Origin: a bacterium
Lineage (GTDB): Bacteria > UBP7 > UBA6624 > JBBIMK01
DNA length: 25,221 nucleotides
NCBI GenBank assembly: GCA_037444445.1
Contig: JBBIMK010000029.1
Span: forward strand, 1-25,221
Direction: 5' to 3'
A program made the position numbers and the translations under genes. Numbering within the stretch: position 1 is the first letter of the stretch; each line of letters opens with the position of its first letter. Positions 1 to 24,902 of the stretch are shown in pieces. The notes beneath the pieces are model-generated. The model had not been told where the DNA came from and did not search any database. It worked only from the letters and a program-made list of their open reading frames with translations.

Positions 1-46
1 CTTACCATGCCTTCTGGTGGCAAGGCTTGAGTTTAACACTTCACTC

Positions 47-219
47 AATCGGCCGGGGGCTTCCCCCCCGTGGGAAAACCTCCATCGCGGGTGGGGGCTG
101 GAAAGATGCCCCGAGCAACCGGGGCAAAAGGAGGAAAAAATAAAAGCGGGAGAAACCGGGAATGGGGGCAGAAGCCCCGCCCGCAGAAGCCCCGACCCGG
201 CGGGGAGGAGAGAAATGCA
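47..219 (+). promoter_or_regulatory. GC-hairpin leader element, copy A, directly 5' of the QueC-like gene
   Basis: The first half (aatcggccggggg..cgtgggaaaacctcc..gcgggtgggggctggaaagatgccccgagc..ccggggcaaaaggagg) matches copies starting at 3408 and 5192. The second half (aaagcgggagaaaccgg..ggggcagaagcccc..cgcccgc, about 142-185) matches 1819-1863. There is a stem CGGGGG 54-59 / CCCCCG 65-70. A further hairpin, ccccg-acccgg-cgggg, abuts the SD GGAGGAG at 204-210. Confidence 0.6.
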
Positions 220-852
220 ATGGCAAAGACTGTCGTGATGCTATCGGGTGGGCCCGATTCGACAACGCTCCTTGCACATCTTTTAAACCAGGGAAACACG
301 GTACGGGGAGTGGTGATTAACTACGGTCAAAACCCGCGGACTCAGGAGGTGGCAGCGGCGAGGCGCATAGCTTTGGCCTACGGCATCCCCCTCGACGTTT
401 TCGACCTCGCGGCTTTGCGGGACATGCTGATTTCTTTGACAGACCCTCCGCACATGCTCATGGACACGTGTCGCGACCCCCAGGCTCTGCTTGGCCTCGT
501 CGGGTTCTATGCGGGTGCGCTCTTGTTCGACTCCGTAGCCTACGCCGCGAACCTTCGGGATGTCCAGGATCAGCCCGGCTACCCCAACTTCTTCCCGGCG
601 GCCCAGGTCATGCTGAATACACTTCCTCCCACCCAAAATCTCACGGTGCTCACTCCCTTCATTAACATGACGAAAGCGGCCGTCCTTCAGCTTGGACAAG
701 AACTCGGTGTGGACTGGACTCTCACCTGGTCCTGCTGGAACGACGTTCCAATTCACGATGGCACTTGTGGAGGATGCATCAGGCGGCATCGAGCATTCCT
801 TGACGCCGGTATCACCGATCCGACGCAATATGCCACTTCGCCAGGTCCTTGA
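220..852 (+). CDS. QueC-like PP-loop ATPase (7-cyano-7-deazaguanine synthase family, divergent)
   Basis: The N-terminus MAKTVVMLSGGPDSTT carries the SGGxDS PP-loop. The C-terminus has a Cys cluster, SCWNDVPIHDGTCGGCIRRH, followed by GITDPTQY, as in QueC. The SD GGAGGAG at 204-210 lies 9 nt upstream of the ATG at 220. The longer ORF starting at 70 runs through the leader repeat and is unlikely to be the real start. Confidence 0.75.
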   Translation: MAKTVVMLSGGPDSTTLLAHLLNQGNTVRGVVINYGQNPRTQEVAAARRIALAYGIPLDVFDLAALRDMLISLTDPPHMLMDTCRDPQALLGLVGFYAGALLFDSVAYAANLRDVQDQPGYPNFFPAAQVMLNTLPPTQNLTVLTPFINMTKAAVLQLGQELGVDWTLTWSCWNDVPIHDGTCGGCIRRHRAFLDAGITDPTQYATSPGP

Positions 853-922: not shown

Positions 923-1777
923 ATGGTCAGCGAAGGTTTCACATACCGGAGCGGCGTCAGGATAGAGTACGTGGTTTGGAGGCCGGCGGGGGTTGGAGAA
1001 GTGAACCCTATCATCCTCTTGCCAGGCTTTCTGTCCTCGGGCTGGTCCGCAGAATCCACGGCGGAACAGCTTGCTACGGTGACGGTCGGTGGTCAACGGT
1101 TCCTGGTGGTGGGTGTGTCCTTGCGCGGAAGGGGCAGGAGCGCGTTCGGCCCGGCTGCAGGTTGCTCAATCGAGCATCACGTTCGCGATATTGAGGCTGT
1201 CAGATCTGAACTGGGCCTCACCCGGCCCGTCATATGCGCGTTCTCTACCTCCGTAATATATGCAATCGCTTATGCGCTCAAGCACACCGCCACTTTGAAG
1301 GGTCTCATCCTCGGTGACTATCCCCCAAGGTTTCCTCAGATTAAGGACTCTTGGGTCACGGATATTGAGCGCGGTCCCTGGTCCTTCCCGAACTGGGCTG
1401 AGGCCGAGTCATGGGCCGTGAGAACAGGATTCATCTCCCTTGAGGACATTCATCGGGCCAGGGGTCGCTGGTTCGTGGAGTCCTCCTCGGGAGAAGTGCG
1501 TCGCCTGGGTTCCCAATGGCTGCCGCGGCGGCTCCAGGCCGAAAATGCACCTGTTGACTTCAGTCACTGCCTGAAGGAGATCCGTTGCCCGGTGATGGTC
1601 CTCAAGGGTACCTTTGCTGGTTCACTCTTGAGCGACTCCGATGTGGCCCACTACGAGGAATGTGGTGCAAAAGTGGTCTGCCTTCCCACGGGTCACGATG
1701 TGTTCCGCCATCAATCCGCAGTCCCCGCGATCATGGATTTCCTCCAACAGTTAGAGAGAAGCCAAAGAAGTGCCTGA
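923..1777 (+). CDS. alpha/beta-fold hydrolase
   Basis: It has ILLPGFLSSGW (oxyanion-region-like), a nucleophile-elbow variant AFSTS, and GHDVFRH near the C-terminus. The SD AAAGGAAG at 907-914 lies 8 nt before the ATG at 923. The ORF-track start at 692 would overlap the QueC-like gene. Confidence 0.65.
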   Translation: MVSEGFTYRSGVRIEYVVWRPAGVGEVNPIILLPGFLSSGWSAESTAEQLATVTVGGQRFLVVGVSLRGRGRSAFGPAAGCSIEHHVRDIEAVRSELGLTRPVICAFSTSVIYAIAYALKHTATLKGLILGDYPPRFPQIKDSWVTDIERGPWSFPNWAEAESWAVRTGFISLEDIHRARGRWFVESSSGEVRRLGSQWLPRRLQAENAPVDFSHCLKEIRCPVMVLKGTFAGSLLSDSDVAHYEECGAKVVCLPTGHDVFRHQSAVPAIMDFLQQLERSQRSA

Positions 1778-1816
1778 CGACGGGTCATAATTTCTATTCG
1801 TTCCATCTCCTTTATA

Positions 1817-1888
1817 ATGAAAGCGGGAGAAACCGGAAAGGGAGGGCAGGAGCCCCCGCCCGCTATACGGGGCAAAAGGAGAAAAAAA
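1817..1888 (+). promoter_or_regulatory. GC-hairpin leader, copy B (partial), 5' of lipoprotein paralog 1
   Basis: aaagcgggagaaaccgg..gggcaggagccc..cgcccgc matches 142-185. It ends in cggggcaaaaggagaaaaaaaATG, as in copies C and D. Confidence 0.5.
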
Positions 1889-2431
1889 ATGAAACGAAAT
1901 GGTATAATATCTACGATGGCAGTTGTTCTGGGATTTGCCCTTCTCGTCTCCTGTTCAGGAAGTTTCAAAGACCAATTCAAAAGGTGGTGCAAAGAGCGCC
2001 ACGGTGAATTCCAGGACCTGCCCGAGTTACTGTGCGTAATTCACACGGTTCCGGATCATGCAAAAGCAAAAGACAAAAACGGAGACGGCAAACTTAATCC
2101 CAGGGGAGCGGATAACACATGGTATGTGGGTGATCCAGGGCAAAATGATGATGACGAAATCGCATATTACGACAGGACAGGCGGCAGAATTCAATGCGCC
2201 ATGGTGGTTGCCGACACCCAGGAACTTTGCACCTACAGCGGCGGGACCTGGACTGAACTCAACGGGAGATATCAGTGCTCGTCTTCACAGTGGGAATCCG
2301 TCATCCTCGCAGAAGATAGCAATGGAGATGGAATCATCCAGGCGACGGAGCACTGGTGTGAAGGGAAGGACGAGAATGGCGGTCCGAACGGGCAAGAAGC
2401 ACCGTGCCCTTATGAGGGCTGGGATTTCTAA
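1889..2431 (+). CDS. Cys-rich lipoprotein with EF-hand-type DxNxDG loops (paralog 1, intact)
   Basis: MKRNGIISTMAVVLGFALLVSC has a lipobox (LVSC). The loops are DKNGDGKLN and DSNGDGIIQATE. The conserved C-terminal signature is EHWCEGKDENGGPNGQEAPC. The SD AAAGGAG lies upstream of the ATG at 1889. Confidence 0.8.
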   Translation: MKRNGIISTMAVVLGFALLVSCSGSFKDQFKRWCKERHGEFQDLPELLCVIHTVPDHAKAKDKNGDGKLNPRGADNTWYVGDPGQNDDDEIAYYDRTGGRIQCAMVVADTQELCTYSGGTWTELNGRYQCSSSQWESVILAEDSNGDGIIQATEHWCEGKDENGGPNGQEAPCPYEGWDF

Positions 2432-3161: not shown

Positions 3162-3386
3162 ATGCTGAAGAAGGGTAGTTTCTGGCATTGTGCTGGCATT
3201 TTTGCCATCCTTCTCCTGTTTCTTGACTCCCTCTGGGGTGCTAAACTTTATCATATTCATTTTTATGTGACGGAGCCCCCTATATACGGCTACATAGTGA
3301 GCCTTTTGTTTACCCTCTGGGCAGTAGCCATGTGGTTTTATGGTCGGAAGGTGCTGATGAAGGAAAAGGGAGCGGGTGATGAATAA
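3162..3386 (+). CDS. small two-TM membrane protein (cassette 1)
   Basis: The ORF is hydrophobic. Its C-terminal 19 aa, AMWFYGRKVLMKEKGAGDE, are identical to the C-terminus of the ORF at 4871-5170. Confidence 0.55.
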   Translation: MLKKGSFWHCAGIFAILLLFLDSLWGAKLYHIHFYVTEPPIYGYIVSLLFTLWAVAMWFYGRKVLMKEKGAGDE

Positions 3387-3507
3387 TCTATGGAGCAGGT
3401 AAGTCCGAATCGGCCGGGGGCTTTTCGCCCCCGTGGGAAAACCTCCAGAAGCGGGTGGGGGCTGAAAAGATGCCCCGAGCGTAACGCCGGGGCAAAAGGA
3501 GAAAAAA
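3327..3507 (+). repeat. Leader/junction repeat, copy C (3' end of the small membrane gene plus a structured intergenic leader)
   Basis: 3327-3436 matches 5111-5220 with 1 mismatch in 110 nt. Stems are CGGGGGC 3415-3421 / GCCCCCG 3427-3433, GGGGC 3458-3462 / GCCCC 3472-3476, and the mutually exclusive GCCCCG 3472-3477 / CGGGGC 3488-3493. The last stem ends 4 nt before the SD GGAG at 3498-3501. Confidence 0.7.
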
Positions 3508-4075
3508 ATGAAACGAAATGGTCACCTCAAGGGGATAACGGTTCTGGCAGTTACCCTTCTTGTTTCCTGTTCAGGAGGCACATTCAAAAGGGCTTTCGGA
3601 ACCCTGTTTTGTCTAACAATTGACGCTGTTCGTGGTCCCCCTGGACGGCTATTACTATTGCACGAGAACGAATCCCACTAATCCAAACGATAAGGTCACG
3701 GGGGTTGGAAAGGACAAGAACGGGAATAATAAGGTTGATGAATGGGGAGCGGACGGCAAACCCGGGACGGACGACGACGAGGTCTGGTGTGTTCAGGGAG
3801 AAGATAATTTAACGGGTCCTCCCATACCCTGTCCTCCCTGGATTAAGCCCAGAACTGTGGCTCAAGCGGATTGCGTAGAGAACGGGGGGAACTGGTCACA
3901 ATCGGACTCTGTCTATCAATGCACCTCATCGGGCTGGGACCGGGTGTTTTTCTGGGAGGACTTGAACGGGGATGATGGCATCCAGATAGATGAGTACTGG
4001 TGTGAATACAAAGATGCCAACGGCAACCCTGATGGAGTGAAAAAACCCTGTCTGGAAAATGCAGATTGGGAGTAA
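3508..4075 (+). pseudogene. Lipoprotein paralog 2, interrupted by a +1 frame change after the signal peptide
   Basis: The ATG at 3508 encodes MKRNGHLKGITVLAVTLLVSCSGG.., which stops at 3679-3681. The mature Cys-rich domain (DKNGNNKVDEW.., DLNGDDGIQIDEYWCEYKDANGNPDGVKKPC) is open in the next frame from 3617 to 4075. The two frames overlap across a C5 run at 3637-3641. Confidence 0.7.
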
Positions 4076-4870: not shown

Positions 4871-5170
4871 ATGAGAAGAATCTGGGAGAATAGACTGTTC
4901 TGGGAATGGTTGGGGGTTTTGTGCTTGTTGATGACATTTGCTCATAACTTGAGACTGCAATTGTTGTTACCGGTTCATATTCCTTGCGACATAAAAAAGT
5001 ATGGGAAAATATGTGAGGTTGCGACAAGCAAACTGCCTTTATTCGGCGGTCCCTGGTTCTGGAAGCCCTACGCAACGGTAGTGGGCATTCTCTTGTACAT
5101 CTGGCTCCTCGCCATGTGGTTTTATGGTCGGAAGGTGCTGATGAAGGAAAAGGGAGCGGGTGATGAATAA
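4871..5170 (+). CDS. small membrane protein (cassette 2)
   Basis: It has hydrophobic segments and the identical C-terminal 19 aa AMWFYGRKVLMKEKGAGDE. Confidence 0.55.
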   Translation: MRRIWENRLFWEWLGVLCLLMTFAHNLRLQLLLPVHIPCDIKKYGKICEVATSKLPLFGGPWFWKPYATVVGILLYIWLLAMWFYGRKVLMKEKGAGDE

Positions 5171-5305
5171 TCTATGGAGCAGGTAGGTCCGAATCGGCCG
5201 GGGGCTTTTCGCCCCCGTGGAAAACCCTCCAGAAGCGGGTGGGGGGCTGGAACATCGCCCCGTAAAGGGTGGTAAAATATCACCCGGGGGCGAAAGGAGG
5301 AAAAA
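5111..5305 (+). repeat. Leader/junction repeat, copy D
   Basis: It is near-identical to 3327-3436 and then diverges, while keeping GGGGC..GCCCC..CGGGGG pairings and the SD AAAGGAGG before the ATG at 5306. Stem: CGGGGGC 5199-5205 / GCCCCCG 5211-5217. Confidence 0.7.
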
Positions 5306-5865
5306 ATGAAACGAAATGGTATAATATCTACGATGGCAGTAATCATTCTTATTCTTTCCTGTAGTGATCCGGGAAGAGATAAGGATTATTACATAAGGAT
5401 TATTACAAAAACAAATGCGTCTATTATGTAATGGATATGTATGAGTGGTACGAGCCGTATCCGCCCTATGACTGGGCGTGTTCTAACGGCCAGAGTCGCT
5501 ATGTTGGTCAGGACAGAAACGGAGACGGTAAATATAAGGCGAAAGGGGATCCCGATGAGCTGGACGAGAGTAAGCGTCCCGAGGTGTGGTGCCAGAACAA
5601 ACAGTCTGACGGCACCTGGAAAAACGGCTCCTGTCCATTTGCAACTATGCAGACCGCAGAAACAGAATGCACTGTCAACGAGGGTTCCTGGTCCCGGTTA
5701 TCTCCCACGCAAGCCTGCTGTGCTTTCCCTGCTGGCGACCTCGCTGTTCTCATCCACGACGATAATGAAGATAGGCTTATCTACAACACCGAGTTCCATT
5801 GCGAGGGACTTAATGAGAACGGAGAACCTGACGGGCAGGAGATAACTTGCCCGGGGGAGGAGTAA
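5306..5865 (+). pseudogene. Lipoprotein paralog 3, split into a signal-peptide ORF and a mature-domain ORF
   Basis: 5306-5431 encodes MKRNGIISTMAVIILILSCSDPG..IM followed by a stop. The stop TAA overlaps the ATG at 5431 (TAATG). 5431-5865 encodes the Cys-rich domain (DRNGDGKYK, DDNEDRLIYNTEFHCEGLNENGEPDGQEITC). The mature frame is already open from 5383 and overlaps an A5 run at 5406-5410. Confidence 0.65.
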
Positions 5866-6561: not shown

Positions 6562-6901
6562 AGAGGCTTTTATATATTCTGTTTGGGCAATTCTCGTGTA
6601 TATTTTCTTCTTTTCCTGGATGAATGCATGGAACCCCCTTGTACAATTTACCTCAGACCCTCTCATCCAGAATACCTGGGAGCCCCTGATGGGCATGCTT
6701 CTGGGCACATTATCCCTGCTGACTTTCACCACCGTGCGACCAGACCTCAAGCCGAGACCTCTTCCCAAAATGTATGTGTACTTAGCCTACATACTGTTTT
6801 GGAGCAGTTTGATAGGGTATTTGTTAATGGTCTTGCTGTTGTTATTCCTGCGCTGGCAACATTCCGCTTTTGGGGGCCTGACCCCAAAAGGTGGTGCTTG
6901 A
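6551..6901 (+). CDS. small three-TM membrane protein (cassette 3)
   Basis: The ORF is hydrophobic and overlaps the stop of the CPBP gene. It occupies the same position as the small membrane genes of cassettes 1 and 2 but has no sequence similarity to them. The start could be 6539 or 6551. Confidence 0.45.
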   Translation: MRYKEAFIYSVWAILVYIFFFSWMNAWNPLVQFTSDPLIQNTWEPLMGMLLGTLSLLTFTTVRPDLKPRPLPKMYVYLAYILFWSSLIGYLLMVLLLLFLRWQHSAFGGLTPKGGA

Positions 6902-6945
6902 CCCCATAAATAATGTCGCTTTTGGGGGCCTGACCCCAAAAGGTG
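6865..6945. terminator. Two copies of a 29-nt hairpin unit between convergent genes (candidate bidirectional terminators)
   Basis: cgcTTTTGGGGgcctgaCCCCAAAAggtg occurs at 6865-6893 and again at 6917-6945. Each copy has a perfect 8-bp stem and a 6-nt loop. They lie between the stop at 6901 (+) and the stop at 6949 (-). There is no U-tract beyond the stem. Confidence 0.45.
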
Positions 6946-6948: not shown

Positions 6949-7710
6949 TTATTCCCTCTTTCCCTCTGGAGTATAGTGTGGCAGGAGTTCTTTCAGAAGC
7001 TGGAAGGTGTTCTGGATGACTTTCAGAGTCTTTTTCAGGTCAAACTCGTGCCAGGTCATCTGGGAAGCTTCGTAAGAGGCTTTCGCCTCTGATAGGCGGG
7101 AGCGTTCATTTTCTGAAAGATGCCCGGAGGACCGGGCTATTAGAGAGGTTTCTATGGCTTTCAAAAGGGTGGCATTCTGTTCCAGGGATAGCAACAGCAG
7201 GGAGGCATTGTCTAAGATTTCCGGGTGGTTTCCGGTTCGCTCGTTGTGGCAGAGGGCACAGAAGTCTTGCACCTCTTTTGACAGGGCTACGGTGGTGTGC
7301 ATAGAGCCGTGGCAGGTGCCGCAGGTGGGTCCCCGCTGGTGTTTCTGCAGGACTTGATAGTGGGTGCTTCGCTGGAAAGCAATCCATTGGGCGCCGTGGC
7401 AGGCTCCGCAGGTTTTCGCCACCTTCTGAAAGTGTATGAGGCTGTTCTTATCCGAGGCAGGGAAAACGCCAGAATGGGCTTCTAAGAGGGCAGGCTCCGA
7501 AGGGTTTCCTCCGTGGCACCGGTCGCAGGTGATAGTTGCCCTGCCGTGGGCGGAGTCTTTCCAGCCCTCGTAAGCCCAGAAGTATTTTCCTGCCTTCTCT
7601 TTCTGTTTATGGCACTGGAGGCACGAATTTTCTCCCGTGAAACTGAATACGAAGGTCAACCCTGCCAGCCCAAAAATTCCTGCCCCCACCAGAGATTTCA
7701 GAGTATTCAT
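6949..7710 (-). CDS. pentaheme c-type cytochrome, membrane-anchored or secreted
   Basis: It has five CxxCH motifs (CLQCH, CDRCH, CGACH, CGTCH, CALCH) and an N-terminal hydrophobic signal/anchor, LVGAGIFGLAGLTFVF. Confidence 0.9.
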   Translation of the reverse strand: MNTLKSLVGAGIFGLAGLTFVFSFTGENSCLQCHKQKEKAGKYFWAYEGWKDSAHGRATITCDRCHGGNPSEPALLEAHSGVFPASDKNSLIHFQKVAKTCGACHGAQWIAFQRSTHYQVLQKHQRGPTCGTCHGSMHTTVALSKEVQDFCALCHNERTGNHPEILDNASLLLLSLEQNATLLKAIETSLIARSSGHLSENERSRLSEAKASYEASQMTWHEFDLKKTLKVIQNTFQLLKELLPHYTPEGKRE

Positions 7711-15166: not shown

Positions 15167-16579
15167 GTGTCTGAAAGGATGAATAGAATGGAAAAAATGA
15201 AGGAGGCGGAGAGCAGGATGCGGCTGGAGAGATTGTGGGAATCCACTCTGCGATATTTGTTGAGGAAGAAGAGCGACCCCATTTTACGCTCTTTTTTGCA
15301 GGAAGCCCGGTTGGAGCAGAGGGAGAATCGCTTCATCCTTCAGGTGCCCACTCAACTCATCCGGGATACTTTGAAAAATCGCTATCCTGGAGTGATTGAA
15401 GAAGCCTTGACGCATGTGTTGAAGGATTCTGGCGGAGATGAAGAGATTGGATGGGAAAAAAAGGAGGTGGTGCTGGAACTGGAGATTCACCGGGGACCCA
15501 CCGGGATGGTTGAACAGCCCGGGCTTTTCCCGAAGTCAAAAGGCGACTCTCGCCTCTACCCCGCCCTGAATCCCAACTTCACCTTTGAAACCTTCGTGGT
15601 GGGGAAGAACAATCATATGACCCACGCCGCTGCATTAGCCGTCTCCCAGAACCCCGGCTGTGTGTATAACCCTCTGTTTATCTACGGTGGTGTGGGGCTG
15701 GGAAAAACCCACCTGTTACATTCCATCGGGCATTACATCCTGGAGAATGCTCCCGCACTCCTGATTCAATACACCCCCTCCGAGGAATTTACCCATGCTT
15801 TCATCACTTCTCTTCAGGAGGGGAAAATGAAGGAATTTCGGCGGACTTTTCGCTCCTGCGATGTTCTCCTGATGGACGATGTCCAGTTCTTAGCCCGGAA
15901 GGTGGAAACTCAGGAGGCGCTGTTTCATATTTTTAATGCCCTGCACGACTCTAACCGTCAGATTGTGCTGACCAGCGACCGCTCACCACGAGAACTGTCC
16001 GACATTGAAGGACGCCTCGTCAGCCGATTCACCTCCGGGCTGATTACCGACATCCAGCCTCCGGATTATGAAACCCGCCTCGCTATCTTGAAGCGGAAGG
16101 CGGATTCCCTTTCTGCTCCCCTCACCGATGAGGTGGCTGAATTCCTATCAGAGCAGGATGTGGCAAACATCCGGGAACTGGAATCCATCCTCCACCGGGT
16201 TGTCTCTTTTTCCACCCTGGAACTGCTCCCTCTCAATCTGGATACCGCCCGGGAAGCCTTGAAGGGATTCTTTGAGAAGAAAGAGAAGCCCTGCACCTTT
16301 GAGAAGATACTCCAATTTGTGGCGGAGGATTTCGGGCTGTCGGAAGGGGATTTGCTGTCAAAGAAGCGGACGCAGGAAATCGTCCTCGCTCGCCAGATTA
16401 TCATCTATATCGCCCGCATCCTTACCCATCTTTCCCTCTCCGACATCGGTAGAAGGCTGGGCGGAAAAGACCATACCACCGTCCTTCACGCATTCTCCAG
16501 AATTTCTGCACTGATGAAAGAAGACCCTGCCCTGGAACGCCGTATCCTCACCCTGATCGACGAAATCAAATCCCAATAG
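15167..16579 (+). CDS. dnaA: chromosomal replication initiator protein DnaA
   Basis: It has Walker A GGVGLGKTHLLH, Walker B LLMDDVQFL, sensor TSDR, and the C-terminal DNA-binding helix GGKDHTTVLHA. The real start is probably an internal ATG (15179-15218). The ATG at 15218 follows the SD GAAGGAGG at 15199-15206. Confidence 0.95.
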   Translation: MSERMNRMEKMKEAESRMRLERLWESTLRYLLRKKSDPILRSFLQEARLEQRENRFILQVPTQLIRDTLKNRYPGVIEEALTHVLKDSGGDEEIGWEKKEVVLELEIHRGPTGMVEQPGLFPKSKGDSRLYPALNPNFTFETFVVGKNNHMTHAAALAVSQNPGCVYNPLFIYGGVGLGKTHLLHSIGHYILENAPALLIQYTPSEEFTHAFITSLQEGKMKEFRRTFRSCDVLLMDDVQFLARKVETQEALFHIFNALHDSNRQIVLTSDRSPRELSDIEGRLVSRFTSGLITDIQPPDYETRLAILKRKADSLSAPLTDEVAEFLSEQDVANIRELESILHRVVSFSTLELLPLNLDTAREALKGFFEKKEKPCTFEKILQFVAEDFGLSEGDLLSKKRTQEIVLARQIIIYIARILTHLSLSDIGRRLGGKDHTTVLHAFSRISALMKEDPALERRILTLIDEIKSQ

Positions 16580-17358: not shown

Positions 17359-17607
17359 CCCCCTGAATTATACGACGAAGGAGGTCAACGAACAGCAAAG
17401 TGGATTTTTTTTTCATTCTGTGGTATCAAGATAAAAGGTTAAGGATTGGATGAGCATAAAAATTACTACCCCCCAACCTCCTCCCACGCAAGGGAGGGAA
17501 ATCCAGAAATGATGATAGAATATAAACTTAGAATGACGGGTGAAGGGGAAGAGAAAGAAATTTTAGGAATGGGGGCCGGGTGAAAAGAAATGGCGAAACG
17601 GTGCCTA

Positions 17608-17679
17608 ACACAGCATAAAAGGTTCGCCCCTTACAGCACTTCCCCCCATTTTTGCTTCGCAAATACTTCTTTTATGCTG
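17608..17679. repeat. Island-flanking repeat R1 (left copy), with 11-bp terminal inverted repeats
   Basis: acacagcataaaaggttcgcCccttacagcacttccccccatttttgcttcgcaaatacttcttttatgcTg matches 25146-25216 with 2 mismatches. CAGCATAAAAG at 17611-17621 is the reverse complement of CTTTTATGCTG at 17669-17679. Confidence 0.8.
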
Positions 17680-17725
17680 GAAAACGTTATATGAAATGGC
17701 GATTGAGAGAAAATGGGGGTGAAAT

Positions 17726-18187
17726 ATGAGGCGAAGAGCCGATATTTATCTTGAAAGTTCCGTTGTAAGTATGTATTATGAAGAGGAGGTTCTTCCTCTG
17801 ATGGAGGTAACACGCGAATTTTGGCATACTGTCCTTCCCAAAATAAATCCATTTATTTCAGATATGGTAATTATCGAAATCAGGGCGACGAGAGACCTTA
17901 ACTTACGAAGTAAACTTCTTGAACTTGTTTCGGGATTTAGAATATTACCTCTGACAAGTGAGGCACGAGAATTGGCAGGGATATATCTAAAACATAGACG
18001 ATTACCCGAGCCAGACGCTATTCATATAGCTATTGCATCATTAGAGGGTATGGACCTGCTGGTAACATGGAACCTGCGACATTTAGTAAAACCTGGCACA
18101 CAGTCTATGGTCCGTCGAGTAAATATGGATTTAGGGTTGCCTATTCCACAGATGGTAACACCTGAAGATTTCTTTGAGGAGGTGTAA
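17726..18187 (+). CDS. PIN-domain (VapC-like) protein
   Basis: The pattern is PIN-like: IYLESSVV (first strand), IIEIRAT, PEPDAIHIAIAS, LLVTWNLRHL. The first and last acidic positions appear as E and N. The SD GGGGGTGA precedes the ATG. Confidence 0.55.
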   Translation: MRRRADIYLESSVVSMYYEEEVLPLMEVTREFWHTVLPKINPFISDMVIIEIRATRDLNLRSKLLELVSGFRILPLTSEARELAGIYLKHRRLPEPDAIHIAIASLEGMDLLVTWNLRHLVKPGTQSMVRRVNMDLGLPIPQMVTPEDFFEEV

Positions 18188-18189
18188 TT

Positions 18190-18390
18190 ATGCCAAAACG
18201 AATACCTACTGAAGAAGAAAAGAGAAAAGCTCTTGAAAGAGCAAAGCGCGAATTTCCTGGTAATAAGGTATTACAAGAACTTCATTACATTCGATATCTC
18301 CTTGAAATTGAGTGGAAAGATATGACAATTGAGGAAATTCAAGAAGAGATTCGTAAGGCAAAGCAAGAGCTGGGATTGACAGAAAAATGA
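18190..18390 (+). CDS. small charged protein, putative cognate partner (antitoxin-like) of the PIN protein
   Basis: It starts 2 nt after the PIN stop, behind the SD GAGGAGGTG. It is about 50% identical by eye to the paralog at 24904-25113 (EEEK..EFP..K.LQE.HY.RY.LE.EW..MT.EEI). Confidence 0.6.
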   Translation: MPKRIPTEEEKRKALERAKREFPGNKVLQELHYIRYLLEIEWKDMTIEEIQEEIRKAKQELGLTEK

Positions 18391-21300
18391 TACCCCCAGA
18401 AGTTCATCTTGCGCGCTTAAAAATTCATAAGGAAACAAAAGGAATGAGCGAGGAAGGAACTATGGCAAATAATAAAGTGGAAAAAATTAACACTGAAGAA
18501 ATAACAAAAGAAATTAAGCAGTGTGCTTCACAATCTGCAAACGAAGAAGAACTCAAAATTAAAGTTGAATATCTTCTACGGACACGTGTTCTTGATAGTT
18601 GGCAGATTCCTTGGGCTTCTTATGAACACAGAACCTTGGTATCCGGTGTGCGTAAAGATGCCCTGTATGGAACAGTAATAATTGAATATAAAGCTCCATG
18701 CAAACTTTCAGATAAAAATCAGTTTGAAAACTTTAAAGCAAAAGTAAAACAGTATATCGCAGAAGAAGCAAGAGACGAACGGTTTTATAATAGGTATTTT
18801 GGTGTCCTTCTTGATGGAGAAAAAATAGCATTTATCAGATTTAGAAAGGGAGAATGGGAAGAACCAGAAAAACCCCTTGATATAAATCGATACACAATTC
18901 TGAGGCTGTTAGAGGCTATAAGGGGTTTAACAAGAAAACCCGTTGATGCTGAGTTCTTATTACAAGACTTTGGTCCGAAGAGTACTATTAGTAAAGCCTG
19001 CATTATCTCTTTATATCAAGCATTAAGAAAATCTAAATCTCCACGCACCAAAATGCTTTTTGAAGACTGGCGCACTGTCTTTTCACAGATATGTGCATAT
19101 TCCACTGAGAAACTGAAAGGGCTTATTAAATACTATGAAATAGAAGAGGAAAGCCCTGATGTTGAAAAAATCTTGTTCTCCGTGCATACCTATTATACTC
19201 TGCTTATGAAACTTTTAACCTCGGAGATAGTTACTCTCTTTGCCGACAGTGTGATAGGCTCGTATCTGAAAAAGGTAGAGGAAGCATACTACCGAGGTTC
19301 TCATGAGATGCGTCAAGAATTAGGAGAGTTAGAAGAGGGAGGTCTATTCTATACCCTCGGCATAAAGAATTTCCTTGAGGCAGATTATTTCGCCTGGTAT
19401 CTGGATGATTGGAATGATGAAATAGCGCATTCAATCTCTGAAATTGTGAAAAAACTAATGGACTATGAACCGGCAACAGTTGAACTGAATCCTGAACGAG
19501 TTAAAGACCTTTTCAAAAGGCTTTACCAGAATCTCGTCCCAAGAGATGTGCGTCACAAATTGGGTGAATACTTTACTCCTGACTGGTTAGCAGATTTGCT
19601 TTTAGATGAGATAGAATATGATGGTGATCCGGAGAAGAGTGTTCTTGACCCTGCCTGTGGTTCAGGGACATTCCTTGTATTGGCAATTAAAAAAATTAAA
19701 GATTACGCAGAGAAACATTTTCTTGATAAAAGAGATATCCTTAAAAAGATAATTGAGAGAATAAAAGGCATTGATTTAAATCCACTTGCAGTTCTTGCTG
19801 CAAAAGCAAATTATCTAATTGCGTTATCTGATATGTTAAGATATAGACCAAAAGAAGGCATTGAGATTCCAGTTTATCTTGCTGATTCAATTTTTGTTGG
19901 AAGAAAAGAAGCAGGTCAGTCTGAACTTGAGGTTCAAAGGAGAATAGTATTTGATAAAAGCGCTCAAAAGGAATGGGAAGCATATATAACTACTAATGAA
20001 GGGCAATTCTGGATGCCTATGGAAGTAATTGATAAAGGAAGGCTTTCGAGTGTCCTTGATTTGATTAATGGATGTATAAGAAATAAGTATTCTGAAAATG
20101 AATTTGAAAAAAGGCTCAAAAATACTTTTCATTTTCGACCTTATGCGTATGGGGCACTTAAAAGACTTTATAAAAAGCTTATTGGTTTAGAGCGATATAA
20201 TAAAAACAAGATATGGACAAGATTGCTAAAAAATAGATTTGCACCTCTTTTTATTGGGAAATTTGACTTTGTAGTCGGAAATCCTCCCTGGATAAACTGG
20301 GAGAATTTACCAGAGTACCATAGGAACCAAACCAAACCTTTGTGGGATTATTACGGATTATTAGAAAAGACAAAGGGTAAGGGTTTAGGAAAAGTAAAAA
20401 GAGACCTGGCAATGCTTTTTGTTGCAAGATGTTTTGATAGATATGTAAAAGAGAATGGGATATTGAGTTTTCTTGTGCCCTGGACATTATTCAAAACACA
20501 GGCAGGCGCCGGATTTAGAAAGCTTCTATCAAAGGGGTTTACACACAGGTGGGGCAAAACTAAAGAAGTTCCAATTGAGACGATCAAAGTTCATGACCTT
20601 GTTCAACTTTATCCATTTGAAGGCGCCGTAAATAGAACAGCGCTGATTGCTATTAAAAAAGGGGAGACCAAGTTTCCAATTCCTTGTCAGATGTGGTCAA
20701 ATCCAAGAAAGGAAAATATTCCGATGGAAGAGGAACTTGAAAATGTAAGGAAGAGAACAAAACAGAATGAGATGATACTTACCCCAATTGTAGAAAAAGA
20801 CACAATGGCTCCATGGATGATAATATCAGAGAAAGCATATAAGGCGGTTAAAAAGGTTATAGGTGAATCGGAATATGAAGCATATGAAGGCGTTAATACC
20901 GCTTTGAATGGTGTTTACTGGCTTGAGATTTTAAGAAAGCACCCAGATGGTCTGCTCGTTAAGAATACGCAACTTGCCGGATATAAGAAAAAGGTAAAGG
21001 AGGTTACAGAGATTTTAGAGCCTGATTTGATTTATCCGCTTATCAGGGGAGAGGATGTAAAGAAGTGGCATGGAGAACCAAGCAGGTATATTTTAGTTCC
21101 TCATAACCCATCAACTGGCAAAGCAATTGATGAATCCGCAATTAAAATTAACTACCCAAAAACATACAAATTTCTTTTCGGCCTCAAAGAAGAACTCGCA
21201 AATCGTTCAATTCATAAATTGTGGGGTAAAAATAGTCCATTCTATGCAGTTTATGATATTGGAAATTATACCTTTGCACCTTACAAAGTTATGTGGAAAA

Positions 21301-22178
21301 GGATAGCGGGCGGTATTACTGGTAAAGCTGTTAGTTTTGCATCATGCGTAATAACAACTGTAAAAGATAAATTCTTTGAAGTAGAAAAACCCGTTATTCC
21401 AAATGATTCCTTAATTTTAATTCCTTTGAACAGCAAAGATGAGGCATTCTATATTTGTAGTGTTTTGAATTCATCACCAGTGCTATTTGCCATCGCATCT
21501 TATACTTATGAATTAAGAATGGAAACCCATATTACCAAGTATATTAATATCCCAAGATTTAAGTCACAAAAACCTTTATGTTCAGAAATTTCGCAATTAT
21601 CCATGCAAGCCCATGAACTTGCAAAAGAAGGTAAAACCGAAGAAATAAAAGAAATTGAGGAACAAATTGACCAGAAGGTTGCAGAACTTTATGGTATAAC
21701 CGATGAGGAACTCGCGGAGATTAAGAAGTGTTTACAGTTATTGAAAGAGGGCGAAGTTGAGACTGAAGAGGAAACGGAAGAAGAAGTTATTCCAGAAGCA
21801 CCAAAGGGGATAGGAATTACAGTCAATCCCCTTCTGATTTATGAGGATATAGCAGAACAAATCACTCTGGAAATTCAAAATAATTTTGACGACACGGTTG
21901 AAGAAATTAGTGTTGAAATTCTATTAACCGGCAATAAAATTGCAAAACAATCTCTTAATAGATTAAAATTTAAGAGTAAGTCCCTATTGAATTTTATCTT
22001 ACCTCCATTAAAGGGCGGTGAATACAAATTGAAAATGAATTTAACTTACAAGTTAAATGAAGAAAAACAAGTAATGCAGGTAGAGAAAAATCTGTTTGTG
22101 CAAAGGGAAAAAGCCAAAGAATCTCCAGGAAGCGGTTGGGATGAATCTTTTGAAAGATTTTTAGAGGAGGAAAAATGA
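18387..22178 (+). CDS. Type IIG/IIL-like fusion: N-terminal PD-ExK nuclease motif, gamma-class N6-adenine DNA methyltransferase, specificity region and a C-terminal extension
   Basis: The nuclease motif is D-x8-E-x-K, KDALYGTVIIEYK (GAT 18657, GAATATAAA 18684-18692). It also has LGEYFTPDWLADLL, motif I VLDPACGSGTFLV (about 19641-19680), motif IV FVVGNPPW (NPPW 20280-20291), and AELYGITDEELAEI near the end of the methyltransferase/specificity part. The start may be 18387 (ATGA overlap with the upstream gene), 18444 or 18462. Confidence 0.88.
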   Translation: MIPPEVHLARLKIHKETKGMSEEGTMANNKVEKINTEEITKEIKQCASQSANEEELKIKVEYLLRTRVLDSWQIPWASYEHRTLVSGVRKDALYGTVIIEYKAPCKLSDKNQFENFKAKVKQYIAEEARDERFYNRYFGVLLDGEKIAFIRFRKGEWEEPEKPLDINRYTILRLLEAIRGLTRKPVDAEFLLQDFGPKSTISKACIISLYQALRKSKSPRTKMLFEDWRTVFSQICAYSTEKLKGLIKYYEIEEESPDVEKILFSVHTYYTLLMKLLTSEIVTLFADSVIGSYLKKVEEAYYRGSHEMRQELGELEEGGLFYTLGIKNFLEADYFAWYLDDWNDEIAHSISEIVKKLMDYEPATVELNPERVKDLFKRLYQNLVPRDVRHKLGEYFTPDWLADLLLDEIEYDGDPEKSVLDPACGSGTFLVLAIKKIKDYAEKHFLDKRDILKKIIERIKGIDLNPLAVLAAKANYLIALSDMLRYRPKEGIEIPVYLADSIFVGRKEAGQSELEVQRRIVFDKSAQKEWEAYITTNEGQFWMPMEVIDKGRLSSVLDLINGCIRNKYSENEFEKRLKNTFHFRPYAYGALKRLYKKLIGLERYNKNKIWTRLLKNRFAPLFIGKFDFVVGNPPWINWENLPEYHRNQTKPLWDYYGLLEKTKGKGLGKVKRDLAMLFVARCFDRYVKENGILSFLVPWTLFKTQAGAGFRKLLSKGFTHRWGKTKEVPIETIKVHDLVQLYPFEGAVNRTALIAIKKGETKFPIPCQMWSNPRKENIPMEEELENVRKRTKQNEMILTPIVEKDTMAPWMIISEKAYKAVKKVIGESEYEAYEGVNTALNGVYWLEILRKHPDGLLVKNTQLAGYKKKVKEVTEILEPDLIYPLIRGEDVKKWHGEPSRYILVPHNPSTGKAIDESAIKINYPKTYKFLFGLKEELANRSIHKLWGKNSPFYAVYDIGNYTFAPYKVMWKRIAGGITGKAVSFASCVITTVKDKFFEVEKPVIPNDSLILIPLNSKDEAFYICSVLNSSPVLFAIASYTYELRMETHITKYINIPRFKSQKPLCSEISQLSMQAHELAKEGKTEEIKEIEEQIDQKVAELYGITDEELAEIKKCLQLLKEGEVETEEETEEEVIPEAPKGIGITVNPLLIYEDIAEQITLEIQNNFDDTVEEISVEILLTGNKIAKQSLNRLKFKSKSLLNFILPPLKGGEYKLKMNLTYKLNEEKQVMQVEKNLFVQREKAKESPGSGWDESFERFLEEEK
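18425..18501 (+). repeat. 77-bp perfect direct repeat R2 (left copy), carrying the SD and first codons of the methyltransferase gene
   Basis: tcataaggaaacaaaaggaatgagcgaggaaggaactatggcaaataataaagtggaaaaaattaacactgaagaaa is identical to 24764-24840. Confidence 0.95.
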
Positions 22179-22975
22179 CACAAGCACTTGCAATACCGTC
22201 ATTCCCTACCCTTATTATATTGCCTAAATATAGGGGGGATGCAGAACCCCTTGTTGTTGAAAGAAAAATAAGCAAGCAAATAGAAAACATAATCAATTCC
22301 TTGATTAAATCACGCAAACCCCTTGCAAAAAATATTCACAATTTGCTGCCACAGATATTTGATATCAGGTTCAAATTTATAAAATGGGCGATTGAAAAAA
22401 ATATTGATTTACAACTTATTTCAGAATCGGTTTTGAGTGAATTAGATAAGGTGGCCAGTCAATTAAAACAACCTGATGAAGTTGTTCTCTTTGAAAATGC
22501 AAAGTTCGCATTGAAAACCTTCGCTAAGGTTCTTAACTCTATTACCGCAGAGATTCCATCGTGGACAGAACAAATAAGAGAAGACCTTGAAAAGGGAATT
22601 ACTATTTCTTATGAGCAATTGAAATTTGCAATAGAGTTAGAGCCACTTCCTGAACCTGCAAAGTCAATTATCATAAGACTCATAGATGTCTCATTGTCCC
22701 TTGAATTTGCTTTAATCCTTTCCGCCTTATATATATTCAAAGAACTCAGACTTTCAAAGGCAAGAATAATTGAACTTTCAAAACTTCTAAGAGACTGGAC
22801 ACAAGAATATGGGGCAATGGCTATGAAATTACAACTTTGGAAATCTAAAATGAAGAAAGTCCCCCAGGAGTCTCTCCAATTAACGGCCGAGGAAATTGAA
22901 GAAGAACAAAAATTGGCAGATGCTGGTATATCTTATTATCTGAACCAGATTATTCAGGAAGAGGAAAATGAATAG
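22175..22975 (+). CDS. hypothetical helical protein with an acidic C-terminal tail
   Basis: It overlaps the stop of the upstream gene (ATGA) and overlaps the downstream MazF-like start by 8 nt. I recognise no motif. The C-terminus is ..AEEIEEEQKLADAGISYYLNQIIQEEENE. Confidence 0.7.
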   Translation: MTQALAIPSFPTLIILPKYRGDAEPLVVERKISKQIENIINSLIKSRKPLAKNIHNLLPQIFDIRFKFIKWAIEKNIDLQLISESVLSELDKVASQLKQPDEVVLFENAKFALKTFAKVLNSITAEIPSWTEQIREDLEKGITISYEQLKFAIELEPLPEPAKSIIIRLIDVSLSLEFALILSALYIFKELRLSKARIIELSKLLRDWTQEYGAMAMKLQLWKSKMKKVPQESLQLTAEEIEEEQKLADAGISYYLNQIIQEEENE

Positions 22976-23306
22976 TTATCAACCTGGCGATATAGTTGTA
23001 GTAGACTTGGGCGAAACCATCGGACATGAACAAGAAGGTAGAAGACCTGTGGTGGTCGTTTCTCAAATATTAATTGGAAATCTAATTGTAATTATTCCAT
23101 TAACAAGAAAAGAGAAGTCCTGGTGGACAGTAGTGCGGATTAAAGAAGGAGAGGGTGGAGTAAAGATGGATTCATTTGCGTTGTGTCACCAAATAAGGTC
23201 TATCTCCTTGAAACGAGTTATTGAAAAATGGAGTCGTATAGAATCGGATACTTTAGCCCGCATAAAAACAGTCCTTGCTAACATCTTTGAATGGAGCCCA
23301 CAATGA
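22968..23306 (+). CDS. mazF: MazF/PemK-family endoribonuclease toxin
   Basis: It contains PGDIVVVDLGETIGHEQEGRRPVVVVSQ, VIIPLT and DSFALCHQIRSISLKRV. These fit the PemK/MazF pattern (GDI..VD..P..G.EQ.G.RP..V.S ... PIT ... Q.R..S..R). Confidence 0.88.
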   Translation: MNSYQPGDIVVVDLGETIGHEQEGRRPVVVVSQILIGNLIVIIPLTRKEKSWWTVVRIKEGEGGVKMDSFALCHQIRSISLKRVIEKWSRIESDTLARIKTVLANIFEWSPQ

Positions 23307-24727
23307 ATCAAGATGAATTAAATGCAAAACTAAAATATTACTTTAGCGATTGCGTTGTTAATAAGAAACTCTCTGAAAGACAGGAAATAATTAGGATTCC
23401 AAGGTTTGTTTCTGAGAACCTTTTAACAAAAATTTCTGTTTATGAAAATGACAAAGAACTCTTTTCTGAAAAACTTGCCAAAATGATAGAGTTTATCACT
23501 AATCACTTTCCTGAACCAAGGGATAAAGATAAAATCCTGAATAAACTACTCGAAAAACAAGAATATGAAATTATAGACGAATTCCGGGTTGAAGTGGATA
23601 TAAAAAATGGCATCAAAAAGGCTCACATCCCTTCCCTGAACATCAGAAACGCAATGATCCTTGATTCCATAATTAATGAAAATGAAAATCTGCTTTCTAC
23701 TGGTATCTGGGGATTTGCAAAACTGAGATATACTGACCCAGTATGCGATGAAAATGAAAACCCTCTTACCGTTCCTGTTCTGATAGAAAGTTTTAAACCC
23801 TTTCAGGTTTCCAATATTGATATGAAAGATTTTATTACAAAGAGAGAGCATTTTACCCTTGATGAATGGATTGATGTAATCATTAATACCATAGGTTTGA
23901 ATCCAAGCATCTTTGATAAGGAGCAAAAGTTAATATTAATTTCCCGCTTCATTCCGCTCGTTGAAAACAATGTAAGTATGCTTGAATTTGGCCCTCGTGC
24001 AACAGGAAAAACATATTTTTACAGGAATATATCCTTTTATACCAGGATAATTTCAGGGGGTCATTTAAGCCCTGCGGTTCTGTTTTATAATATTGCCACA
24101 AAAACTGTAGGAGAAATAGGAATAAAAGATTGTATGGTATTTGATGAAATAGCCAAAATCAGATTCATAAATGCTGACGAAATGATGGGAAAACTGAAGG
24201 ATTACATGGAGAGTTCTCATTTTGAAAGAGGTCCTAAAAAAACAACCTCTACATGCTCAATGGTATTTATGGGGAATGTGGATGTTAAAGGATTTATTCC
24301 TGTGGAAGATTTTACTTATATATTACCAGAATTTATGAGAGACAGCGCTTTTGTGGATAGGATTAACGGTATAATACTAGGATGGAAGTTGCCAAAAATT
24401 AAGAAACCTGAAATCCATCTTTCTCAAAATTATGGATTTTCTTCTGACTATTTTTCTGAAATCCTTCACGAATTAAGAAAAATAGACTTCCAAACAGAAT
24501 TAAAAAGGATTGTGGATTTGGAAAATGTAACCATAAGGGACTATAAGAGCGTTTTTAAATTGTTAAGTGGCATGATGAAAATCTTATTTCCTCACAAAAA
24601 GTGGGAAGTGCCTGAGTTTGAGAGAATAATAACCTTTTGCATAGGATATCGCGAGATGGTCTGTGAATGGCTGCATAAAATGGCACCTGGGGAGTTTGAA
24701 AGGAAGAGAATTGTGTTTAAAGTATGA
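23303..24727 (+). CDS. BrxL-like AAA+ ATPase (short form, no room for a Lon-like C-terminal domain)
   Basis: It has Walker A FGPRATGKTYFY (23990-24013) and Walker B CMVFDEIA (GATGAA 24143-24148). The N-terminus LNAKLKYYFSDCVVNKKL and the core ..GPR.TGK..Y......ISGG......LF.N......G.....D...FDE.. resemble BrxL as I remember it. The ATG at 23303 overlaps the MazF stop (ATGA); an alternative ATG is at 23291. Confidence 0.7.
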   Translation: MNQDELNAKLKYYFSDCVVNKKLSERQEIIRIPRFVSENLLTKISVYENDKELFSEKLAKMIEFITNHFPEPRDKDKILNKLLEKQEYEIIDEFRVEVDIKNGIKKAHIPSLNIRNAMILDSIINENENLLSTGIWGFAKLRYTDPVCDENENPLTVPVLIESFKPFQVSNIDMKDFITKREHFTLDEWIDVIINTIGLNPSIFDKEQKLILISRFIPLVENNVSMLEFGPRATGKTYFYRNISFYTRIISGGHLSPAVLFYNIATKTVGEIGIKDCMVFDEIAKIRFINADEMMGKLKDYMESSHFERGPKKTTSTCSMVFMGNVDVKGFIPVEDFTYILPEFMRDSAFVDRINGIILGWKLPKIKKPEIHLSQNYGFSSDYFSEILHELRKIDFQTELKRIVDLENVTIRDYKSVFKLLSGMMKILFPHKKWEVPEFERIITFCIGYREMVCEWLHKMAPGEFERKRIVFKV

Positions 24728-24763
24728 GTATATTGCATATCGCCACCAAGCAAAACAGTCGTC

Positions 24764-24840
24764 TCATAAGGAAACAAAAGGAATGAGCGAGGAAGGAACT
24801 ATGGCAAATAATAAAGTGGAAAAAATTAACACTGAAGAAA
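24764..24840 (+). repeat. 77-bp perfect direct repeat R2 (right copy)
   Basis: It is identical to 18425-18501. It begins 37 nt after the BrxL-like stop. Confidence 0.95.
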
Positions 24841-24902
24841 AGTTACCAATTCCCACAATTTTGACACCTGAAAAATTTTTTGAATTCAAGGAGGAGGTGT
24901 AA
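24841..24902 (+). pseudogene. 3' remnant of a second PIN gene, fused in frame to the R2-encoded start (chimeric micro-ORF 24783-24902)
   Basis: KLPIPTILTPEKFFEFKEEV-stop parallels the C-terminus of the intact PIN protein, GLPIPQMVTPEDFFEEV-stop. The same SD/stop/start geometry follows (ggaggaggtgtaatATG). Confidence 0.7.

Follow-up and report, generated by a model that had tools for sequence, protein, structure and literature searches.

The locus and its leader copies

The stretch of DNA that was analysed in this study (the window, 25,221 nt) is an entire contig of chromosomal origin, with dnaA located at 15167-16579. Its first ~7 kb are a gene array in which all of the genes lie on the same strand. 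A QueC-like gene and an alpha/beta hydrolase gene are followed by three paralogous cassettes (A, B and C), each of which comprises a gene for a Cys-rich lipoprotein (lipoA, lipoB or lipoC), one for a CPBP/Rce1-like membrane protein and one for a small membrane protein; the paralogous proteins of the cassettes share 30-47% identity. The element in question is a structured leader, of which one copy (LB) sits at the junction of cassettes A and B and its twin (LC) at the junction of cassettes B and C. Three full copies are present within the window, one ahead of the QueC-like gene (L0) and two ahead of lipoprotein genes, and two more copies are diverged. An earlier reading of this DNA (the original prediction) had proposed that the A/B junction carries a cis-regulatory RNA that controls the lipoprotein genes, or a recombination hotspot. 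The relevant genes and the parts of LB, including its three hairpins (P1-P3) and its Shine-Dalgarno sequence (SD), are as follows.

220-852, plus strand: QueC-like gene; its score of 85.6 bits is below the 150.3-bit QueC equivalog cutoff
923-1777, plus strand: alpha/beta hydrolase gene, after the QueC-like gene
3162-3386, plus strand: small membrane protein gene of cassette A, 74 aa
3408-3507, plus strand: leader copy LB, from AATCGG to the base preceding the lipoB start, the stretch common to L0 (47-142) and LC (5192-5305)
3415-3433, plus strand: hairpin P1 of LB, CGGGGGC-uuuuc-GCCCCCG, 7 bp, pair probabilities 0.8-0.99
3442-3461, plus strand: hairpin P2 of LB, CCUCCA-gaagcggg-UGGGGG, 6 bp including one G-U, pair probabilities 0.66-0.75
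3462-3470, plus strand: P2-P3 linker of LB, A-rich CUGAAAAGA, unpaired in the ensemble
3471-3494, plus strand: hairpin P3 of LB, UGCCCCG-agcguaacgc-CGGGGCA, 7 bp, pair probability ~1.0
3496-3510, plus strand: SD and start of lipoB, with AAGGAG at 3496-3501, an A7 spacer and ATG at 3508-3510

The minimum-energy and ensemble folds of LB and LC agreed on three tandem local hairpins, P1, P2 and P3. P1, which begins 29 nt past the upstream stop codon, is the 7-bp hairpin that had been noticed in the original prediction (3415-3421 paired with 3427-3433), and the predicted pairing of GCCCCG (3472-3477) with CGGGGC (3488-3493) is likewise present, its full form being the 7-bp P3 (arms UGCCCCG 3471-3477 and CGGGGCA 3488-3494). 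P2, whose arms are CCUCCA (3442-3447) and UGGGGG (3456-3461), was missing from that list; the third pairing listed there, GGGGC (3458-3462) with GCCCC (3472-3476), has its sequences in place but is essentially unpopulated in the ensemble. P3 ends 3 nt ahead of GGAG (3498-3501), for which the mean unpaired probability in the computed ensemble was 0.89 in LB and 0.71 in LC. A stem-loop next to an accessible strong SD, which is the arrangement of the ompA/aprE type of stabiliser, was thus found here, and the same layout recurs in all of the copies and homologues. Moreover, the pattern GCCCCG-N3-30-CGGGGC occurs twice in the window compared to 0.03 expected occurrences, and all six of the looser CCCCG..CGGGG hairpins in the window stand 0-4 nt upstream of AGGAG.

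The Rfam covariance search that had been suggested along with the original prediction was run on the window, the related locus L005 and ten further related loci; at the gathering thresholds it returned nothing relevant except for rRNA genes, and at E up to 10 it returned only chance-level matches, with no preQ1, metal or other riboswitch on the coding strand.

The remaining copies in the window are listed below.

47-142, plus strand: leader copy L0, with P1 54-70, P2 79-97, P3 107-126 and an SD-like AGGAGG 129-134
139-219, plus strand: second diverged leader module, directly ahead of the QueC-like ATG at 220
1816-1888, plus strand: diverged leader LA before the intact lipoA, with a GCCCC..GGGGC hairpin at 1852-1873 that lies 2 nt ahead of AAGGAG 1876-1881
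5192-5305, plus strand: leader copy LC before lipoC, with P1 5199-5217, P2 5225-5246, P3 5255-5293 and SD 5295-5300

The differences between the copies fall in loops and linkers. L0 is 92% identical to LB, and of the 16 alignment columns that differ, all but one are outside the 40 paired columns. Its P1 is a 6-bp version with a changed loop (CGGGGG-cuucc-CCCCCG), as had been claimed for this copy, which was then called copy A. L0 is followed by ATA and not ATG and, therefore, is not directly joined to a start codon. In the 139-219 module, two hairpins were found, GGGGGC-agaa-GCCCC (164-178) and GCCCCG-acccgg-CGGGG (189-205), the latter of which abuts the SD GGAGGAG (204-210). The 5' part of LA is similar to 139-168, and a perfect TATAAT is present at 1813-1818. 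In LC, P2 is one C-G pair longer (5225-5246), its 5' arm having gained a C and its 3' arm a G, the closing pair of P3 is C-G instead of U-A, and the 25-nt loop of P3 holds an inserted 8-bp hairpin, GGGUGGUA-aaa-UAUCACCC; these changes make P2 and P3 stronger and bring no gain for the alternative helix. A covariance model (R1) that was built from L0 and LB, whose E-values are rough due to a shortened calibration, scored 132.9, 112.6 and 88.7 bits on the three full copies and matched LA weakly (E 0.025). A weak match (E 0.04) at 7067-7154, inside the minus-strand cytochrome gene (GAAAGATGCCCGGAGGACCGGGC), was judged to be due to chance.

Several other readings of the leader and its surroundings were rejected. 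An ATG that is located 4 nt past the upstream stop opens an open reading frame (ORF) through the leader (3390-3623, 77 codons in LB; 5174-5275, 33 codons in LC), but its frame is shifted among L0, LB and LC by indels of 2, 1 and 4 nt, and the encoded products are not the same. A leader peptide is, therefore, improbable, although ribosomes that reinitiate at this ATG could unwind the hairpins. The CCUCC at 3442-3446 was considered as a candidate anti-SD, but its pairing probability with the SD is 0 and the motif is missing from the homologous leaders. A boxA-like reading of GGGAAAACC was dropped for want of a CUUU core, and the similarity of window positions 1-50 to a 23S trailer was not significant.

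The high-identity tract and leaders in other genomes

Two blocks of near-identity between the cassettes were delimited.

3320-3461, plus strand: high-identity tract, common with 5104-5245, that covers the last 20 codons of the upstream gene, the stop codon and the P1/P2 half of the leader
1884-1923, plus strand: second identity patch, with 40/40 nt identical to 5301-5340, that covers the A-rich spacer and the first 12 codons of lipoA and lipoC

Between 3327-3436 and 5111-5220, only one of 110 nt differs (A vs. G at 3402), exactly as had been reported, and the ungapped similarity of 3295-3461 to 5079-5245 is 90%. The flanking paralogues are indeed highly diverged, at 30-47% for the proteins and mostly 10-50% for the DNA, with 20-50% DNA identity for the surrounding three-gene cassettes. 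When the three cassettes were aligned with MAFFT, DNA identity was 100, 98, 97 and 88% in the 60-nt windows with starts at 3328-3408, compared to 10-50% almost throughout the rest of the alignment, with a sharp drop on either side of the tract, so that the identity does not run uniformly through the flanking genes as it would after a simple recent duplication. The C-terminal 19 residues of the cassette A small membrane protein (AMWFYGRKVLMKEKGAGDE) are the same as those of the ORF at 4871-5170, and so are the nucleotides. Over these 60 nt of coding sequence there is not a single synonymous change: all 16 degenerate codons are identical, while the baseline for residues that are conserved between the paralogues elsewhere in the locus is 41.5% (135 of 325 codons; P ~8e-7). 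The orthologous protein tail in the related locus L008 is not strongly conserved. The pattern is also mosaic, with LB equal to LC up to 3436 and similar to L0 thereafter, and with lipoB differing across the 40-nt patch that lipoA and lipoC have in common. A sharp-edged block of identity, the lack of synonymous differences and mosaic donors are the features by which gene conversion is recognised, and the extension of identity into coding sequence, the 16 identical codons and the mosaic patches together point to repeated short gene conversions. Judging from these patterns, the near-identity of 3327-3436 and 5111-5220 is not an effect of the function of the leader but a recent gene-conversion tract that was seeded by the conserved leader, which partly bears out the recombination that the original prediction had offered as its second option. 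A leader under selection would provide the homology from which conversion tracts spill into the flanks.

A sigma-70 promoter scan of the identical tract yielded no passing candidate, and the similarity of 3327-3414 to the promoter region of the JZ-2024 genomes described below was marginal (p 0.02-0.05). Two of the three lipoprotein genes, lipoB (3508-4075) and lipoC (5306-5865), are frameshifted. In lipoB, a 188-aa ORF was restored by removing any single base that was tested from 3614 to at least 3653, including the C5 run at 3637-3641; the break in lipoC is due to a tandem duplication of 14 nt (AAGGATTATTACAT/AAGGATTATTACAA) at 5381-5408, and the removal of one copy gives a 181-aa ORF. These may be pseudogenes, a case of phase variation or assembly errors. 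An integron attC site or a repeat of a diversity-generating retroelement was rejected, as the Pfam scan of the 37 ORFs found neither an integrase nor a reverse-transcriptase domain, and as the repeats have a single difference and agree at their many A positions.

Concerted evolution of 5' regions is known from the surface-lipoprotein families of Mycoplasma (vsp/vlp) and Borrelia (vlp/vsp). Like them, the array has tandem lipoprotein genes with near-identical upstream and signal-peptide regions, divergent bodies, mosaic patches and some frameshifts. Unlike in these families, there is no site-specific recombinase or inversion site here, the tract covers the end of the preceding gene, and the leader also serves non-lipoprotein genes, in other species too.

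The leader was also found in other assemblies, in which R1 matched the following stretches.

L005 17808-17883: E 3e-7, ends exactly at a start codon
L005 19030-19108: E 3e-6, ends exactly at a start codon
L018 179-254: E 9e-8, ends exactly at a start codon; L019 178-253 is identical over the leader
L020 270-339: E 7e-4, ends exactly at a start codon
L012 12171-12270: E 0.01, ends exactly at a start codon

The leaders in L018, L019 and L020 precede orthologues of the QueC-like gene of the window (80-82% identity), and the two leader genes of L005 encode a secreted protein and a GNAT acetyltransferase, which have no similarity to each other. A local alignment of LB with the leaders of L005 and L020 scored better than all of the 2000 shuffles, and the alignment with L020 extends from the first linker through the middle hairpin, A-rich linker and P3 to the SD. 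A lack of conservation outside this locus, one of the outcomes that would have counted against the original prediction, was thus not observed, and of the proposed cis-regulatory RNA, a structured leader that is conserved beyond the locus (R1 matches at E 9e-8 to 7e-4) stands, while a riboswitch or attenuator with exclusive helices gained no support. The idea that the element specifically controls lipoprotein genes does not hold either, as the leader also precedes non-lipoprotein genes.

Across the lineages, the order of elements is a hairpin, (G)AAA(A/U)CC, a hairpin, an A-rich linker, UGCCC(C)G..(C)GGGCA and AGGAG. The stems of the middle hairpin are CCUCCA/UGGGGG in the window, CGCGGGG/CCCUGCG in the JZ-2024 metagenome-assembled genomes and GGCGC/GCGCC in L020, and the pairing is kept. 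The JZ-2024 assemblies are GCA_054402615.1, GCA_054402775.1 and GCA_054402875.1. Their copies of the leader have a G-C pair inserted in the middle hairpin (H2) and a G-U in place of an A-U in a closing stem. In the window, the first hairpin is strand-flipped relative to the other lineages, and the A-rich linker has the counterparts AGAAAAAA in JZ-2024 and GUAAAAAGU in L020. The arms of P3 recur in L0, LC, L005, L018, L019 and L020 with loops of 6 to 25 nt, which fits an RNA hairpin and argues against a DNA operator with fixed spacing. When the three lineages are compared, two short linkers are preserved and the middle hairpin shows covariation, whereas the loops are free to vary and the P3 stem is invariant. 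With regard to covariation, which the original prediction had proposed to examine, the middle hairpin pairs in three sequence versions, and P3 has no statistical covariation.

Most of the loci of the lipoprotein relatives have different leaders. A scan of public genome contigs for the leader pattern gave four chance matches in GC-rich genomes, one of which was in a coding region and one of which was a GC hairpin in an otherwise dissimilar, GC-rich Gaiellaceae contig; the same scan of metagenome contigs gave no match. In JZ-2024, the same ~50-nt segment, which ends in an extended -10 box TGTTATAAT, lies ahead of each leader (L005 18966-18974; L018 114-122 and 1816-1824), from which it follows that the JZ-2024 repeat unit is a promoter plus a 5' untranslated region (UTR). 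With this box ~110 nt ahead of H3, the primary 5' end in JZ-2024 does not coincide with H3. The contigs L018 and L019 begin ~80 nt upstream of the repeat segment, and the window contig begins 46 nt upstream of the first leader; contig starts so close to the leader repeats would be as expected if the repeat breaks assemblies.

Candidate functions of the leader

We tentatively prefer a reading that we consider possible though still somewhat short of probable, namely that this is a portable mRNA leader with a defined structure, through which the mRNA is stabilised or processed and a strong ribosome-binding site (RBS) is presented, the identity of its copies being due to conversion. The leader would work as an intercistronic region or 5' UTR of ~100 nt with three GC hairpins, short A-rich linkers and an exposed SD, and it stands ahead of several unrelated genes, which encode a QueC-like enzyme, Cys-rich lipoproteins, a secreted protein and a GNAT acetyltransferase. 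Its role would be post-transcriptional and constitutive, and not ligand-switched. P1, after the upstream stop, might shield the preceding part of the transcript against 3' exonucleases or cause a partial attenuation of readthrough; endonuclease cleavage or ribosome standby could plausibly take place at the A-rich linker; and P3 with the strong SD would act as a 5' stabiliser that presents the RBS, as in the ompA and aprE leaders. The leader is an undescribed motif of a known general kind, and we infer its stabilising or processing role.

According to a review (PMC7509114, citing Hambraeus 2002, Emory and Belasco 1990 and Arnold 1998), the aprE, ermC and ompA mRNAs are stabilised by a 5' stem-loop in combination with ribosomes that bind to a strong SD, even in the absence of translation. 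The ompA 5' UTR of E. coli, the aprE leader of B. subtilis and ermC resemble the leader in that they have a stable hairpin just upstream of a strong accessible SD, and the hairpin and SD of L0 without a start codon match what the review (PMC7509114) says about ribosome binding, and not translation, being what matters. Stabilisation without translation would explain the retention of L0 even though its ATG is now ATA. These leaders differ in that three hairpins and conserved linkers are present here, repeated ahead of several genes in an operon-like array, and in that the sequence is unrelated. The cryIIIA STAB-SD is a further 5' stabiliser of this stem-loop and strong-RBS group. Intercistronic stem-loops are also known to confer segmental stability on polycistronic mRNAs, such as the E. 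coli malE-malF repetitive extragenic palindromic (REP) elements, those of Rhodobacter puf and the early RNase III sites of phage T7. Here, too, GC hairpins lie between a stop codon and the next RBS in a same-strand array, but the stems of the leader, at 6-7 bp, are too short for RNase III, and, compared to REP elements, the leader is not genome-dispersed as far as the available DNA shows (the 25-kb window and ~130 kb of related loci).

Several observations weigh against the stabiliser interpretation. The sequence of the P3 stem and of the linkers is conserved, which would be a better fit for a sequence-specific RNA-binding protein than for a passive hairpin. The hairpins, at 6-7 bp, are too short for RNase III, and an RNase III site was rejected for the same reason. 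On the alignment A13, P3 is 96% paired, but four of its seven pairs are invariant and its covariation score was reached by 71 of 500 shuffles, so that statistical covariation is absent for P3. Moreover, all of the homologues come from a few closely related uncultivated genomes, in which shared ancestry and conversion inflate the apparent conservation, and the lipoprotein-family loci L008, L009, L016 and L017 of other lineages do not have this leader.

The sequence conservation of the P3 stem and the linkers makes a protein-binding translational operator the main rival, in which a trans-acting protein would read the P3 stem and the A-rich linkers and co-regulate the genes by blocking or aiding the 30S subunit. 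We regard it as unlikely. In its favour, the lineages agree in the sequence of the P3 stem and in the linkers (G)AAAACC and xGAAAAGAU while the other stems change, the module stands ahead of unrelated genes within the same genomes and its position is fixed at 0-4 nt from the SD. No candidate RNA-binding protein is encoded at the locus according to the Pfam and NCBIfam scans, however, and recent common ancestry and conversion could also explain the conservation; a shifted stem and a 25-nt loop are tolerated in LC. A lineage-specific regulatory RNA, bound by a protein or a small molecule, is decidedly unlikely. It would define a small accessory-gene regulon that consists of the QueC-like and alpha/beta hydrolase genes, the lipoprotein/CPBP/small-membrane-protein cassettes and the GNAT and secreted-protein genes, and it would perhaps be coupled to rRNA transcription or processing, since related genomes tie these genes to rRNA operons and the leader RNA might, in that case, couple their expression to rRNA.

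Each of the three other explanations is less likely than the operator. It is improbable that the element has no RNA function and is a residue of segmental duplication or conversion at the cassette junctions with incidental GC palindromes. The B/C identity does enter coding sequence without a synonymous change, the identity patches are mosaic and the frameshifts in two of the three lipoprotein genes suggest a decaying array; nevertheless, the leader is found in other assemblies, ahead of both orthologous and unrelated genes, where conversion with the window locus is impossible. The stems are avoided by the differences, both strands of P2 and of P3 change jointly in LC, the middle hairpin pairs in three different sequences and the SD is adjacent in every copy. 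A switch had been part of the first option of the original prediction; it would be a riboswitch or attenuator that toggles between GGGGC:GCCCC (3458-62/3472-76) and GCCCCG:CGGGGC (3472-77/3488-93) under the control of a ligand, for instance a 7-deazapurine or a metal, and this we consider to be very improbable. The G and C runs permit a chain of mutually exclusive helices, one copy is ahead of the QueC-like gene and the JZ-2024 version folds as a three-way junction followed by a hairpin (z-scores -2.8 and -3.4). On the other hand, the alternative helix in LB has a probability of ~0 at 37 °C and of at most 0.03 at all temperatures from 37 to 85 °C, in LC it remains at 0.02-0.03 until 70 °C and does not rise to 0.18 before 85 °C, and forcing it costs +5.7 kcal/mol in LB and +2.3 kcal/mol in LC. 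A terminator scan of 3387-3507 and 5171-5305 found no plus-strand hairpin with a U-tract, and with no pairing that covers the SD either, there is no recognisable expression platform; the proposed switch between exclusive helices is not supported. The conservation is the opposite of that of a typical aptamer, as the stems and short linkers are kept while the loops vary in length and sequence, the order of the G and C runs is not kept in JZ-2024 and L020, and functionally unrelated genes share the leader.

Operons with queC usually have preQ1 riboswitches (Rfam classes I-III) as their leaders, and these are similar in having a small hairpin, an A-rich tail, an SD and a QueC-family gene. Here, no Rfam family matched at the gathering thresholds, a limit as loose as E 10 brought up no preQ1 covariance model, loop and tail show no complementarity for a pseudoknot, and lipoprotein, GNAT and secreted-protein genes are also preceded by the leader; in addition, the QueC-like protein is under the QueC equivalog cutoff (85.6 vs. 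150.3 bits). Most improbable, in our estimation, is a role of P3 on the opposite strand or at the DNA level, either as an intrinsic terminator of antisense transcription or as a REP-like dispersed palindrome. Minus-strand P3 is followed by AUCUUUUC (U6-7 in JZ-2024), the terminator scan flagged 3494-3471 on the minus strand, the minus strand of L005 has a weak Rfam similarity to the terminator ends of small RNAs and one stand-alone hairpin exists in an intergenic region of L012 (19090-19109). Yet, JZ-2024 alone has a good minus-strand U-tract, L0, LC, LA and the 139-219 module having a poor one or none, no minus-strand gene has to be ended within the locus, and, outside the leaders, the only hairpins of this kind in the window and the ~130 kb of related loci are rRNA-internal ones or ordinary terminators. 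The adjacency to a plus-strand SD is universal, which disfavours both versions.

If the leader is functional, it would be an undescribed cis-acting RNA module from an uncultivated lineage that is left unclassified by NCBI, as well as a compact natural hairpin-plus-RBS part, and its reuse ahead of unrelated genes would be the pattern expected if several genes had a stabiliser or post-transcriptional control element in common. The locus also illustrates how conversion that is seeded by a conserved regulatory element can reach into the neighbouring coding sequence and so create identity islands in old, diverged paralogues, which could lead those who search for motifs to over-read conservation.

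The lipoprotein family, its rRNA neighbourhood and other features of the window

The Cys-rich lipoprotein at 1889-2431 of the window and its relatives P0004-P0024 form a very small family, with ~20 members found among 1.84 billion representatives in an exhaustive hidden Markov model search. A word-indexed protein search with lipoA found only lipoA itself, and a related-locus search from the lipoprotein alignment confirmed no relatives. The family is characterised by DxNGDG-type motifs and a conserved C-terminal E(Y/F)HCEGLNENGxPxGQExxCP, and it had no match in Pfam or NCBIfam. The lipoprotein gene is always followed by the genes for a CPBP/Rce1-like membrane protein and a small membrane protein, a cassette that is kept in the loci of the relatives.

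In the relatives, the lipoprotein/CPBP cassettes and the QueC-like gene adjoin rRNA operons or rRNA fragments, which recurs in independent assemblies (L005 9056-17538; L012 3880-9810 and 11950-12270; L015 1675-1870; L016 1-130; L020 1-77; L014 15004-15089). The order in L005 is a 5' partial 16S, a cassette, a full 16S-23S and the leader genes. In L012, the cassette begins 270 nt past the 23S, and the 23S end and trailer are duplicated ahead of the next gene; in L020, the QueC-like gene begins 263 nt past the 23S end. No 5S rRNA was found in these rRNA-adjacent loci. The adjacency could be real biology or an assembly effect. Additionally, in L014 and L009 (L014 11300-11700; L009 1-140 and 1850-2145), ~60-nt tandem repeats (GTATAGCCGTTTGACGCGGATCGTGCAGGATA...) and a structured segment precede the lipoprotein gene, and this segment matches L012 (3510-3700) between a CTTGAC...TATAGT promoter and the 16S gene. 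The lipoprotein genes of L014 and L009 thus appear to carry copies of a duplicated rRNA promoter and leader. This proximity to rRNA operons, together with the duplicated pieces of rRNA promoters, leaders or genes, may be a more unusual feature than the leader that was studied here. The 23S match in L012 (5587-9539) is 3953 nt long compared to the 2925 positions of the model, which suggests an insertion or intervening sequence of ~1 kb.

At the end of the array in the window, identical 29-nt copies of CGCTTTTGGGGGCCTGACCCCAAAAGGTG are present at 6865-6893 and 6917-6945, each of which forms a perfect hairpin (TTTTGGGG / CCCCAAAA). They close the array and face a convergent multihaem cytochrome gene (6949-7710, minus strand), and they are probably a bidirectional terminator pair. 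The far end of the window, 17600-25221, is a low-GC island with 35-38% GC compared to 46-59% elsewhere in the window, and it carries genes for a BREX PglX-like methyltransferase (18387-22178) and for BrxL (23291-24727), along with ones for a PIN protein and a MazF-like toxin. A stretch of 77 nt from the start of pglX (18425-18501) is repeated at 24764-24840, and the 76-nt segment 17608-17683 is repeated with 96% identity at the contig end (25146-25221). The repeats of this island suggest either a duplicated or rearranging module or an assembly wrap-around.

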